Shown here: piece after piece, positions 8,440 to 11,818 of the stretch
How positions within the stretch are numbered: the stretch's first letter is position 1
Layout of the letters: every line of letters starts with the position of its first letter
Assembly: GCA_040326155.1 (NCBI GenBank)
Contig: JBEQLE010000008.1
Coordinates: forward strand, 1 to 64,000
Length of the DNA: 64,000 bases
Direction of reading: 5' to 3'
Source of the DNA: Leptospirales bacterium
GTDB lineage: Bacteria; Spirochaetota; Leptospiria; Turneriellales; JAOUFE01
The notes under the pieces: model-generated
Seen by the model: only the letters and a program-made list of their open reading frames with translations
Database searches by the model: none
What the model was told of the DNA's origin: nothing
Translations under genes and position numbers: made by a program

Positions 8440-8979
8440 TCAAAGCCGAAGGTTCATGCCGGTTTGGGTCGTAAAACCAATTGTGCGAGAGGTAACCTTC
8501 CCTTTGGAATCGATAAAATAAAAGGTTGGAAACCCTGAAATATGGTATTGCTCTGCCACACGAGAGTCTCCCGCTAATACAGGCATTTCTAAACTATGCT
8601 TTTTGGCAAAAATTTCAAGCTCTTGAACATTATTGTAAGATAGCCCCACAGCCAGTACAACCGTTTCATCTTTTGTATCTGCATTATGAAGATTGCCCAC
8701 ACTTGCCGAGGTCAAATTACAAACACTACACCAGGGAGCAAAAAAATAGATCATCACGGGCTTTCCTTTATATTGTTCAAGAGAAAAACTGTCGCCTTTT
8801 AAATCAGTTAAAGTAAACGCAGGTGCGGTCTTCTCTTCCGGAATTAAATTTCGGGTCTGGTATGCATGCACCCCGTATAATATTATAAGGTAAAATGGTA
8901 ACTGTAGAAAGGCAAAACGATAATATGGTCCGATAGTTTTCCATTTTTGCCGACTATATTCAAAAAGTTGCTTTATCAT
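8440..8979 (-). CDS. TlpA/ResA-like membrane-anchored thioredoxin-fold protein
   Basis: TM anchor, APAFTLTDL, WCSVC CxxC, GFPTFYFID. Confidence 0.88.
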   Translation of the reverse strand: MIKQLFEYSRQKWKTIGPYYRFAFLQLPFYLIILYGVHAYQTRNLIPEEKTAPAFTLTDLKGDSFSLEQYKGKPVMIYFFAPWCSVCNLTSASVGNLHNADTKDETVVLAVGLSYNNVQELEIFAKKHSLEMPVLAGDSRVAEQYHISGFPTFYFIDSKGKVTSRTIGFTTQTGMNLRL

Positions 8980-9505
8980 ATTATCCTAATATAGTAAATT
9001 TTCAGCAGACGGCAACGTTTTCTTGCAAGGAGACGTCTTTGTGTTGGTGGCTTAAGGTAAATATACGTGGGTAAATCCACGTCAGTTTTACAAGAAATCG
9101 CGCAAAAGGCGCGGGCCTGCGGAGGGTTCGCGAAAAACAGAATTACTATATTTCATAGAACGAAACGCCGCGCAGTTCCCCGAATTATTACACCTGAATT
9201 TTCGAAGGTCCTCCCTCCGGTCGGCCTCGGGGCATAGAAAAAAATAATTATGATCAACCCTCCTCCGCCCTGACAAGAGGTGTATATTACTCATTACCAT
9301 TTCGTTCCAAGTCTATTACAAAAAAACCTCATGCCGCTTGGGGAATTCCACAAGCGAAACAGATACCGCCTTCGCCCTGGGGGTTTCCCCAGAATCAGCG
9401 TTAACCGCCAAGCCGATACAAAAAAAGGAAAATAATTTTAAATAACTTCATGTTTTCATTATTATACTTGACAAGCTGAATTCATCAGTCATAAACCGTC
9501 TACAA

Positions 9506-9586
9506 ATGAGACAAGATTATTTACAAAAAAACACGAATCCAAAAAGCGATTGTACACAACGTCGCTCAAGGGGTGCCTTTGTTTAA
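9506..9586 (+). CDS. Candidate leader peptide (uORF), 26 aa: MRQDYLQKNTNPKSDCTQRRSRGAFV
   Basis: ATG 9506 to TAA 9586, downstream of TTGACA (9468-9473); the stop codon lies inside a predicted antiterminator stem. Confidence 0.45.
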   Translation: MRQDYLQKNTNPKSDCTQRRSRGAFV

Positions 9587-9652
9587 GTAGTTCGTTATAT
9601 ACGTTCCAACTAATTAAGAAAGGCGAACCCAGTGTTCGTCTTTTTGCGTTTT
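9575..9652 (+). promoter_or_regulatory. Mutually exclusive antiterminator/terminator pair (attenuator)
   Basis: 9575-9592 GCCTTTGTTTAAGTAGTT pairs with 9608-9624 AACTAATTAAGAAAGGC; alternatively 9619-9628 AAAGGCGAAC pairs with 9634-9643 GTTCGTCTTT, with the T-rich tail TTTTTGCGTTTT from 9641. Confidence 0.6.
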
Positions 9653-9693
9653 ATACTGCGCATTTGAAAAGTTGGAAGAATTTGGAGAATATA

Positions 9694-9852
9694 ATGAATA
9701 ATAAAGCAGAAAAGGGAAAAACTGATATGGTAAAAACCATTAAGCGTATGTCCCGGCATGAGTTTTTGTTAAAGCCTTCTGTGGCTTTTAAGTCAAAAAA
9801 AGCCTACAGAAGAAAAATGAAGCATAAGAAAAGTGTTTCAGCCGATTCCTAA
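9694..9852 (+). CDS. Small basic protein, ArfA/BrfA-like ribosome rescue factor candidate (52 aa)
   Basis: GGAG SD at 9684; MNNKAEKGKTDMVKTIKRMSRHEFLLKPSVAFKSKKAYRRKMKHKKSVSADS; KSKK-x-Y-x-RK-x-KHK motif. Confidence 0.55.
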   Translation: MNNKAEKGKTDMVKTIKRMSRHEFLLKPSVAFKSKKAYRRKMKHKKSVSADS

Positions 9853-9914
9853 TGACGCGGATAAAGTACGTTTTAAATCGAATCAAATCTATGGCAGAAG
9901 GGTTGGCTTTTTTT

Positions 9915-10048
9915 AGTGCACAAAAAAATCCTGCGGTTTTTTTGTGTCGCTTCGTTCGACGTTCGTTTAAAGTTATTTGTTTCCAAAAAGCGTGGTTTTT
10001 TATCGATCCTTTCATGGTATATTACTCACTTCGTTCAACTTTCGTTTG
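9915..10048 (+). repeat. Dispersed intergenic repeat family A, copy 2
   Basis: TAGTGCACAAAAAAATCCTGCGGTTTTTTTGTGTCGCTTCGTTCGACG...AAAGTTATTTGTTTCCAAAAAGCGTGGTTTTT. Confidence 0.75.
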
Positions 10049-10717
10049 CTAATGGAGGCTATCTAAAATGCGTTTTATCCAATTCTCAAAATTATTACAC
10101 TTTGTCCGAATTGTATCAATACCTATTTTTTGACTAATGATAGTACCATCTTGAACTTTATTGTAATTCGGATATATTGACCGGATTCTAGCCGAAGGAT
10201 GAGTCGTTGCGCCAGAATTAATTTTTTCGATATTGGTATACTGTTTTATTATTGTGTTTAACTTTTTTTCGGCGTGTAAATCTAAAAAAGTTTCAGCCGA
10301 AATTTTTGGATCAACAAATAGTAACGTTTCAAATTCATGAAGAAACAGGTATGGAATAAAATTTGGCCGCGCAATATCAGCTTGCCATGTCTTATATAAG
10401 TAAGCGATTTTTTTATAGATTTCCATATTTGGTAATTCCTTTAATCCCGGAAAATCTATAGGCAAACCATAATAATCGAACATTGTTGTAATAATACATT
10501 GCTCATCTTTTATTCGATGAATTTCATCTTTAATTTTAGAATACGTTGTTACACCACCTTTAAAAGTTTTACCAGATTTTTCTCTCTTGGTTTTAATAAT
10601 AATCGGTTGAATATTCAGGGATGTATTATTCAAACTTGATTTTATATAGGGAGATAAAACTTCCTTTATAAATTTCTCTTCAGTTTGACCTTCCACAATA
10701 ATATAAATTCTGCACAT
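10049..10717 (-). CDS. DUF4276-like (TOPRIM-like) protein
   Basis: IYIIVEGQTEEKF, TTMFDYYG, FIPYLFLHEFETLLF, C..FENW; starts 3 nt downstream of the ATPase. Confidence 0.8.
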   Translation of the reverse strand: MCRIYIIVEGQTEEKFIKEVLSPYIKSSLNNTSLNIQPIIIKTKREKSGKTFKGGVTTYSKIKDEIHRIKDEQCIITTMFDYYGLPIDFPGLKELPNMEIYKKIAYLYKTWQADIARPNFIPYLFLHEFETLLFVDPKISAETFLDLHAEKKLNTIIKQYTNIEKINSGATTHPSARIRSIYPNYNKVQDGTIISQKIGIDTIRTKCNNFENWIKRILDSLH

Positions 10718-10720
10718 TTT

Positions 10721-11818
10721 TTATGGACGCCCGCCTAGCACATTTTTCTCCCAGAGTTCGCCAATGGCATAATCTTCCAGCCAGGTATCTACTTCTTCGG
10801 GACCAGGTCTTTTGAATAGAGTTTGTTCGTTTCCTCGTTCCACAATAATAATATCTTTTGGTTCGAACTGGTTAAGGAAGGTGACCGATTGTGTTGAAAT
10901 GATAATTTGTGTTTTTTGGGAGGTCGATTTTATCATCCCGGCTAAAATCTGAATTGCATACGGGTGTAGCCCAAGTTCCGGTTCATCGAGAATAATAGTA
11001 GCCGGTAAATCAGGTTGTGTAAATAAAGTTGTCAGACACATAAAGCGTAATGTGCCATCGGATAAAGAGTTTGCGTCAAAATATTGGTCGGACCCTTTCT
11101 CTGCCCATTCCAGTTTAATTTGATTTTCATTACCCGGCCAGGGTCTGAGTGTAAAATCATGAAAGAAGGGAGCAACAAGCCTGATGGTATCCACGATTTT
11201 TTTATAGTGAAGTTCATATTTGTTTTTAAGCCAGAATAGATATGCGGCAATATTTGATCCGTCTGCTCGAAAGAATATTTGATCGCCGACAGATTGAAGT
11301 TTTTTCATGTTTGAAGTATCGCTTGTATCATGAAAATGATAGAGCTGCCAGCTTTTTATGGAATCGATTACGTACTTTTCAATAGATTTTTCTTTGTTGC
11401 TCTTTTCAAAAAGTTTAGTTTCACGTGTTGTATTATGAATTATTCTTTGCATTTTCCTCTCAGGATCTACAAACCCAAAATAAACTGTTTCCTCACTAAA
11501 AATCAACCCATCCCCGGCCGGTTCTAAAATAAATTCATAACCATTTAGATATTGTTCATCATCAAAGAAGATTTTGACCTCAAGTTTTTCTGTTGTTTTG
11601 CCACCAAAATAGAGTATTTTTTCTACGCCTCCGGCTTTAGCAATATACGATTCAAGCCTCAGATCAATCAAGTTTCGGAGCATTTCAAAAAGCTTGATAA
11701 AATTAGATTTACCCGCGCCGTTTGCGCCGATTAAAATATTCAGGTTCGTTAACTCAAAATTATCTAGTTCACGAAAACTTTTAAAACCTTTTATGCTGAT
11801 ACGACTCATTACTTTCAA
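10721..11818 (-). CDS. ABC-type (AAA_21/AAA_15-like) ATPase
   Basis: Walker A GANGAGKS, signature SLSDGT, Walker B ILDEPELGLHP, ISTQS, C-terminal GELWEKNVLGGRP. Confidence 0.9.
   Translation of the reverse strand: MKVMSRISIKGFKSFRELDNFELTNLNILIGANGAGKSNFIKLFEMLRNLIDLRLESYIAKAGGVEKILYFGGKTTEKLEVKIFFDDEQYLNGYEFILEPAGDGLIFSEETVYFGFVDPERKMQRIIHNTTRETKLFEKSNKEKSIEKYVIDSIKSWQLYHFHDTSDTSNMKKLQSVGDQIFFRADGSNIAAYLFWLKNKYELHYKKIVDTIRLVAPFFHDFTLRPWPGNENQIKLEWAEKGSDQYFDANSLSDGTLRFMCLTTLFTQPDLPATIILDEPELGLHPYAIQILAGMIKSTSQKTQIIISTQSVTFLNQFEPKDIIIVERGNEQTLFKRPGPEEVDTWLEDYAIGELWEKNVLGGRP

Follow-up and report, generated by a model that had tools for sequence, protein, structure and literature searches.

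What does a 52-codon basic open reading frame (ORF) encode when it stands behind a short upstream ORF (uORF), an antiterminator and an intrinsic terminator, and which signal would such a leader sense? The question is raised by nucleotides 9468-9852 of the forward strand of the window, a term used here for the whole stretch of DNA analysed, 64,000 nt long (positions 1 to 64,000 of contig JBEQLE010000008.1 in the GenBank assembly GCA_040326155.1 of a Leptospirales bacterium). An initial annotation had read this region as a ribosome-rescue factor resembling ArfA or BrfA under a uORF-coupled attenuator. We describe the ORF as a member of a protein family in which most other genes carry a terminator-like hairpin within the coding region, and we propose that the family may act in alternative ribosome rescue and that in the window lineage it would be controlled by a ribosome-dependent transcription attenuator. 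To the two together, rescue function and attenuator, we give a rough probability of 0.4-0.5.

A conserved family of small basic proteins

The 52-aa ORF is, with near certainty, a gene for a real conserved protein. Its homologues show purifying selection, which argues against a chance reading frame: between the window copy and a metagenome copy of 71% identity (L024) the ratio of nonsynonymous to synonymous substitution rates (dN/dS) is 0.12 for the whole ORF and 0.024 for codons 13-46. Both the ORF and its Shine-Dalgarno (SD) sequence lie where the initial annotation had placed them.

A word-indexed search with the window protein retrieved one relative, of 71% identity. With phmmer, seven matches at E<=0.001 were found among 1.84 billion representative proteins; six of them are 50-57 aa long, and the seventh (P0005, 1089 aa), in which there is no aligned stretch, was ignored. 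A family-profile search collected 38 proteins. The sources name the family proteins only "hypothetical" or "uncharacterized", and precomputed Pfam domains are lacking throughout. As far as these searches tell, these small basic proteins form an uncharacterised family of the class to which Leptospira belongs. Its consensus in an alignment of 25 members is ..K.IK..SR..F.LKP.....SKK.Y.RK.KH, in which S20, R21, Y38 and R40 (window numbering) are invariant. The window copy, L024, L025, L002 and L003 constitute a subgroup with a KH pair and then an acidic tail at the C-terminus, followed by an ordinary stop codon.

A nine-member profile matches 56 of the 190 genomes of the window's class, or 54 if two matches are discounted that fall in a 1163-aa frame (G115) and in a 120-aa frame with E 0.005 (G095); a match from a separate search of genome contigs, L026, was dropped as spurious, being inside a 265-aa frame. 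By family, the profile matches both genomes of f7, 8 of the 42 of f9 and 45 of the 114 of f8, within which all 41 genomes of genus g21 and three of the five of g46 are holders. In the taxonomic family of the window none of the three remaining genomes matches this profile, and neither do g19 (22 genomes), g20 (24) and g53 (8). Genus g21 includes Leptospira biflexa, with P0136 (LEPBI_I2122), which is identical to the L006 protein.

Most relatives carry a hairpin inside the ORF

Thirty-seven loci were compared, the window and 36 others (L048, L049 and L051 were left out as repeat fetches of loci already counted). A hairpin and a T-rich stretch lie within the ORF in 28 of the 37, from the Y-S-R-K codons to 6-67 nt before the stop codon. 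Two of these 28, L030 and L032, belong to family f9, the rest being every Leptospiraceae locus that the script accepted; L004, which failed the script's T-count, has the same in-ORF hairpin. The stem of L011 runs straight into eight T, that of L030 and L032 (AGACCGG/CCGGTCT) is followed by TTTTTATTTTT or TTTTTGTTTTTT, and L052 has a G+C-rich 14-bp stem and then seven T, so by their make-up the in-ORF hairpins of these four relatives read as textbook intrinsic terminators. Measured against dinucleotide shuffles in ten representatives, the z-score of the in-ORF fold ranges from -1.2 to -5.6, with -3.1 to -5.6 for L006, L011, L029, L030, L032 and L052 and -1.8 to -2.3 for L033 and L050.

The stems vary by lineage with compensated changes, TTCCCGAAAAGG/CCTTTCGGGAA of g21-B being replaced by TCCAGGAAGA/TCTTCCTGGA in L029 and by TTCCAGAAAGA/TCTTTCTGGAA in L050. 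The Arg codon in the stem is CGA in one lineage and AGG or AGA in others, and the 3' arm changes to match (TCG, CCT). The residues encoded past the hairpin, 6-23 in number in the 25-member alignment, are Phe/Leu-rich and unconserved, as would be expected if this stretch served as a U-tract rather than as protein. A reading of the proteins as type I toxins or membrane peptides was rejected, the hydrophobic tails being about 10 residues long, unconserved and missing from the window's clade.

When transcription of a gene is terminated short of its own stop codon, the protein made from the message is tagged for degradation by trans-translation. In the case of arfA and brfA the message ends before the stop codon and the back-up factor appears only on failure of the transfer-messenger RNA (tmRNA) (PMC8012679, PMC6881298), and brfA is described as having a rho-independent terminator within the coding region, before the stop (PMC6881298). 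From the hairpins and tails of the Leptospiraceae and f9 relatives, a comparable non-stop-mRNA design appears quite probable.

The window copy is built differently, and like it the other four members of its subgroup (L024, L025, L002 and L003) are devoid of an in-ORF terminator. From the Y.RK motif to the stop codon it has no in-ORF terminator, only an 8-bp hairpin (z -2.3) that is not followed by a T-run, and in the window's clade no coding-region RNA structure is common to all five sequences. The coding region of the window copy also holds a 13-bp hairpin with one bulge (9773-9813), which is the source of spurious Rfam matches to miRNA and histone stem-loop models. It is shared with L024 only, not being conserved in L025, L002 and L003, and in L024 it shows one compensated pair (T-A to C-G), the 3' change of which costs an Arg-to-Gly replacement. 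Three further loci, L031 and L055 (f9, genus g32) and L003 (G013), have neither the leader described below nor an in-ORF terminator; the ORFs of L031 and L055 begin about 40 nt past the stop codon of the upstream gene and that of L003 about 50 nt past one. The family has, therefore, at least three regulatory arrangements.

The leader of the window copy

The leader is found at five loci, the window, L024, L025, L002 and L061 (genome G007), that is, in four of the five members of the subgroup with KH and an acidic tail (L003 being the exception) and in L061. An exact pattern search of the 190 genomes of the class found it in three, and a covariance model, run on the 34 genomes of the order, recovered true leaders from the same three, G000, G007 and G009, and from no other; five weaker matches of this model (E 0.005-0.09) were rejected as ordinary gene-end terminators. 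A search of positions 8900-10300 against Rfam at E<=10 gave five noise matches, none of them close to the gathering score. The copy at L061 (1409-1800, contig C14 of G007) is perfect, with a 26-codon uORF that ends in AFV-stop, an antiterminator and a terminator. Behind it stands an SD-led ORF of about 46 aa; the motifs SR..L..P, PS and Y.RRKH are found there in three frames and in the right order, none of them significant. This cargo could be a decayed copy, the result of assembly indels (the genome is in 1050 contigs) or a different gene.

The TTGACA hexamer and the 26-codon uORF that the initial annotation had listed are both present (Table 1). The -10 element is weak, and a promoter scan scored an upstream pair (TTTAAA 9437 / TATTAT 9465) instead; in L061, which lacks this TTGACA, TATAAT stands 10 nt upstream of the uORF ATG. 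With the -35 and -10 elements of Table 1, transcription would start 2-5 nt before the uORF ATG and the uORF would be near-leaderless. In L. interrogans about 440 mRNAs have a 5' untranslated region (5'UTR) shorter than 10 nt (PMC5243855).

The uORF has counterparts of 26, 27, 30 and 26 codons in L024, L025, L002 and L061, respectively. Four of the five uORFs end in A-F-V-stop inside the antiterminator arm, and the frame is retained in four of the five leaders despite a 3-nt difference in length. An ATG with a frame that ends in or just after the arm arose by chance in 4.2, 6.0, 3.3, 2.2 and 12.7% of shuffles of the stretch from the transcript start to the arm (5000 per locus, with an 18-nt window for the ATG that was set post hoc); as the loci are related, the product of these per-locus frequencies overstates the case. 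Between the window and L024 the uORF has a dN/dS of 0.43 and a dS of 0.30, against a dS of 1.43 in the main ORF, and this low dS indicates a constraint at the RNA level as well.

The stem that buries the end of the uORF was also present, although it is longer than the approximately 16 bp first assigned to it: the helix 9570-9595 / 9601-9630 encloses a small inner hairpin and has a minimum free energy of -19.7 kcal/mol (z = -3.4; one of 200 shuffles as stable), the whole leader (9503-9652) reaching z = -2.1. The competing terminator was likewise recovered, AAAGGCGAAC being common to it and to the 3' arm of the antiterminator. RNAalifold returns this terminator as the consensus of the five leaders, with both-sided changes kept at two pairs. 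It ends 20-50 nt before the main ATG, and only about 20-33 nt before it in L002 and L024, which is too short for a promoter, so there the gene must be read through the terminator.

Both conformers of which the initial annotation had spoken are predicted by RNAfold in each of the five leaders: RNA cut before the 3' arm of the terminator folds as the antiterminator, and masking of about 30 nt around the uORF stop, which mimics a terminating ribosome, gives the terminator. The check that the annotation had proposed, of homologous loci for a conserved uORF and covarying stems, shows the frame and the helices to be kept and the peptide to be unconserved. In each lineage the antiterminator has a 3' arm of different sequence and register, and this arm still pairs in all five leaders; the core of the 5' arm, GCCTTTGTYTAR, is unchanged in four of them (window, L024, L025 and L061). 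That this core stays frozen despite a drifting partner points to a constraint besides pairing, perhaps the last codons of the uORF or the context of its stop, or a contact of the RNA. The small hairpin within the uORF is possibly a pause hairpin for RNA polymerase, synchronising translation with transcription.

Table 1. Elements of the leader and of the 52-aa gene, in window coordinates
Feature	Position (strand)	Details
-35 hexamer TTGACA	9468..9473 (+)	38-40 nt before the uORF ATG in 4/5 leaders (window, L024, L025, L002)
Putative -10 element CATAAA	9490..9495 (+)	16-nt spacer; GTCATAA shared with L024 and L025; inferred
Leader uORF	9506..9586 (+)	26 codons and TAA (9584-9586); peptide MRQDYLQKNTNPKSDCTQRRSRGAFV
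Small hairpin within the uORF	9545..9566 (+)	RNAfold; equivalent in 5/5 leaders shortly 5' of the antiterminator arm, its sequence differing from leader to leader
Antiterminator, 5' arm	9570..9595 (+)	Last uORF codons and TAA; core GCCTTTGTTTAA at 9575-9586
Antiterminator, 3' arm	9601..9630 (+)	3' part (9617-9630) doubles as the 5' arm of the terminator
Intrinsic terminator	9617..9652 (+)	Stem 9617-9645 and T-rich tail; scan: 12 pairs, then GCGTTTTATA
SD of the main ORF, GGAG	9684..9687 (+)	6 nt 5' of the ATG at 9694; GGAG or AAGGAG at the same position in L024 and L025
Main ORF, 52-aa basic protein	9694..9852 (+)	Codons 9694-9849, stop 9850-9852; homologues, alignment of 25, dN/dS

Proposed function and mechanism

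We lean slightly towards the view that the proteins of this family act in alternative ribosome rescue as ArfA and BrfA do, a view suggested by the motif Y38-x-R40-K41-x-K43-H44 of the window protein (the KGKGS part being missing) and by the in-ORF hairpins of the relatives. As we picture it, a ribosome that has run to the 3' end of a message and stalled there would take up the basic C-terminal segment KSKKAYRRKMKHKK in its vacant mRNA channel, and recruitment of a release factor (RF) would fall to the conserved N-terminal half (IKRMSR.EF.LKPS). In most relatives the message would be a non-stop one, the product of which survives only when tmRNA tagging fails.

That the leader in the window is a ribosome-dependent attenuator seems fairly likely, in that the uORF, the antiterminator and the terminator of the initial annotation recur at five loci and both folds are predicted at each of them. 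In the window lineage transcription would begin just before the uORF. A ribosome that trails the polymerase and reaches the uORF stop would cover 9570-9600, so that the 3' arm pairs with 9634-9645 and transcription ends near 9646-9652. Where no ribosome is loaded, or where it lags or stalls before about codon 17, the antiterminator would form first and the gene would be transcribed. Read-through in the absence of prompt translation of the uORF would mean induction by shortage or slowness of ribosomes, as caused by trapped non-stop complexes. By analogy with rli80-hflXr of Listeria monocytogenes, the role of an anti-antiterminator could be played by the weak local hairpin AAGG/CCUU.

The window's own genome, in an assembly 94.66% complete, encodes one tmRNA (tag ADDVDYAMAA), SmpB, RF1 and an RF2 with the SPF motif. 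It also has a third protein with an RF-1 domain, identified as PrfH (253 aa; contig C168, L059 1078-1839 (+); TIGR03072, 195 bits against a cut-off of 166.65). ArfB and a rescue gene matching the ArfA model were not found in this assembly.

Alternative explanations

Several results weigh against the proposed reading, on the side of the protein as well as on that of the leader. None of the 25 family members matches the Pfam ArfA model (PF03889) at E<=10; in the window's own genome the sole match of this model (E 0.64) is elsewhere, within a 1714-aa frame, and in the E. coli genome, the positive control of this search, it scored over the cut-off. The Pfam model of ArfT or KGG-type repeats equally matches none of the 25 at E<=10. 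A search of the sequences of solved structures with the window protein alone gave no match, and the 25-member profile run against all solved chains at E<=10 retrieved two unrelated chains, neither of them ArfA or BrfA. The program hhalign aligned FLLKPSVAFKSKKAYRRKMKH to residues 25-45 of E. coli ArfA, taken as a single sequence from the annotated K-12 record since the ArfA homologues fetched were at least 80% identical and too close, with P 0.0075 and a probability of just 5%, which reads as a resemblance of motifs and not as evidence of homology. Membership of the ArfA or BrfA family is not borne out. The initial annotation's wider idea of ArfA/BrfA-like rescue keeps the shared Y.RK.KH motif and the in-ORF hairpins; homology to ArfA, BrfA or ArfT is not detectable.

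Four further points concern the protein. The Leptospiraceae members have no KH pair (YSRKKKEDH), a difference from both ArfA and BrfA. In g21 subgroup A the hairpin reaches a z-score of only -1.2 to -1.5, with a 16-nt loop and an interrupted T-tract. As the window copy has no in-ORF terminator, the best argument for the function has to be taken from relatives with about 40% identity to it. In g21, 40 of the 41 genomes carry the family together with a third RF-1-domain gene, and so the two are not complementary. Complementarity with ArfB-like genes was considered and is not seen in the Leptospiraceae; outside the Leptospiraceae 9 of the 11 holders have at most two RF-1-domain genes, and many non-holders likewise.

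With such results the leader could work as proposed and the protein be some other small basic factor that binds ribosomes or RNA (hibernation-type, stress-induced ribosome-associated or accessory ribosomal) and recruits no RF. Basic Y.RK.K motifs carry little information, and with the third RF-1-domain gene of g21 a second back-up is not obviously needed. The matches to other families, though weak, would fit as well. Against DUF7230 (PF23876) the window protein reaches 18.9 bits (E 0.0016), short of the curated cut-off of 27 bits; 5 of the 25 members match that model (best E 5e-05), all sub-threshold, and in the own-genome search the model scored 17.5 bits. NCBIfam returned only S21 (E 0.29). 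In the ESM Atlas the nearest clusters comprise hypothetical proteins and also one DUF7230 cluster, 11% of whose members carry DUF7230 (score 0.92, a lead only). The full-text literature searched, with most subscription journals outside it, holds nothing on DUF7230, LEPBI_I2122 or ArfA-type rescue in Leptospira. Another factor of this kind would leave the in-ORF hairpin and the junk tails of 28 of the 37 loci unexplained; tmRNA destroys non-stop products unless it is saturated, and the described cases of this design are back-up rescue factors only (PMC8012679, PMC6881298). We regard it as unlikely and retain rescue as the preferred function.

As to the leader, the uORF has no SD sequence in four leaders and a weak GAG in L002, and the peptide it encodes is unconserved. 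The ATG frame of L002 runs on for 9 nt beyond the end of the others, to a TGA; the A-F-V frame is open there, with no canonical start. The leaders represent only about four independent lineages, the window and L024 being close kin, and the leader of G007 is followed by an ORF without a match to the family. The two folds of the window leader, terminator and antiterminator, lie close in predicted energy (-26.6 and -25.6 kcal/mol), so that either could be the default, and no element of the proposed mechanism is less certain than the direction in which the switch works.

The absent SD and the unconserved peptide, together with the RNA-level constraint seen in the dN/dS and dS of the uORF, would suit a riboregulator that is independent of translation and set by a ligand, an RNA or a protein, possibly the 52-aa protein itself, the open frame being a by-product. 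The ATG frame of L002, which reads the conserved arm differently, and the additional hairpin 5' of the antiterminator in all five leaders could be taken in the same sense. Such a regulator hardly accounts for a constant spacing of promoter and ATG and for a frame of 26-30 codons into the arm in all five leaders while the intervening sequence has diverged, the per-locus chance of such a uORF being 0.022-0.127. In addition, the uORF stop lies centrally in an arm that a terminating ribosome would cover, short 5'UTRs are common in L. interrogans (PMC5243855), and Rfam at E<=10 gave noise only. We think this explanation distinctly improbable and prefer the ribosome-dependent attenuator.

Hardly any weight can be given to the uORF and the terminator being an independent small gene, with a separately transcribed 52-aa ORF next to it by coincidence: the good intrinsic terminator 3' of the uORF and the 45 nt from the T-tract to the main SD in the window would allow for it, but the order of the elements is kept at five loci, the distance from terminator to ATG in L002 and L024 leaves no room for a promoter, the conserved alternative helix spans the uORF stop and the terminator, and the peptide is unconserved.

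Comparison with known systems

Like ArfA, the window protein is small (52 aa, against 72 aa encoded in E. coli) and has Y-x-R-K-x-K-H where ArfA has S-Y-M-R-K-G-K-H, and like arfA most of the relatives have a hairpin within the ORF with hydrophobic or junk residues encoded beyond it. The family differs from ArfA in the absence of the KGKGS stretch, in its N-terminal block (IKRMSR.EF.LKPS) and in belonging to another phylum, and the window copy, instead of an in-ORF element, shows a normal stop codon and, upstream, the proposed attenuator. The in-ORF terminator of brfA is mirrored in L011, L030, L032 and L052, whereas the profile search of solved structures shows no similarity to BrfA, the lineage is another one and the window copy is devoid of such a terminator. 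ArfA and BrfA have in common a Lys-His pair that touches U534 of the 16S rRNA in the mRNA channel (PMC6881298), and the window protein has such a pair in K43-H44. ArfT is a small charged helical protein proposed to recruit RF1 or RF2 (PMC6514570); the family is set apart from it by the failure of all 25 members to match the KGG-type model.

The leader likewise has described counterparts, classical leader-peptide attenuation of the trp type among them. The ribosome-recycling factor gene hflXr of L. monocytogenes is controlled by a uORF-dependent transcription attenuator (PMC6310831), so the suggestion of the initial annotation that such control logic had not been described was only half right. 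The Listeria leader, rli80, has a 14-aa uORF with an RLR arrest motif that overlaps an anti-antiterminator, and mutation of its start codon locks the switch off (PMC6310831). The window leader and rli80-hflXr share a short uORF, mutually exclusive antiterminator and terminator, and a downstream gene for the handling of blocked ribosomes. They differ in that uORFs of the window type are 26-30 codons long, near-leaderless and have no shared arrest motif; in that the uORF stop of the window lies inside the antiterminator arm, so that naked RNA is predicted to read through; and in the cargo, which is a 52-aa peptide and not a GTPase.

ArfA is reported to be confined to beta- and gamma-proteobacteria (PMC8012679) and BrfA to Bacillus, and many bacteria may hold unidentified rescue systems (PMC6881298). 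A spirochaete family of such factors would be new, and so would the replacement of a non-stop circuit by an attenuator within one family; the literature searched contains no paper on this family or on such a swap of circuits. More tentatively, and going by sequence comparison, this could be a fourth, sequence-unrelated family of RF-dependent rescue peptides with two interchangeable feedback circuits, the one working through non-stop mRNA and tmRNA and the other through a near-leaderless uORF attenuator. If the proposal is true, it adds a spirochaete solution to ribosome rescue, present in L. biflexa, a non-pathogenic Leptospira that is genetically tractable. It would also provide a natural experiment, one gene being under an in-ORF terminator or a leader-peptide attenuator according to lineage, and would ask whether a back-up rescue factor has to sense the failure of tmRNA or a shortage of ribosomes. 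An in-ORF hairpin with a junk tail may serve as a signature in the search for rescue factors among unannotated small ORFs.

Release factor 2 genes and the downstream genes

RF2 is encoded by an uninterrupted frame in the window's order, where among the 30 matches listed (L064-L093) only that of G016 has one in-frame TAA. All seven of the RF2 matches listed for g19 and g20 (Leptospiraceae) carry one in-frame TAA, presumably a programmed frameshift site, though the codon is TAA.

Directly downstream of the 52-aa ORF and convergent with it is a two-gene pair (10049-11818, reverse strand) that encodes a DUF4276 protein (E 4.9e-42) and an AAA_21/AAA_15 ATPase (E 4.4e-30), the Pfam description of which is a putative AbiEii toxin of a type IV toxin-antitoxin system. 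By these domains the pair looks like a defence-type module, unrelated to the leader and the 52-aa protein.

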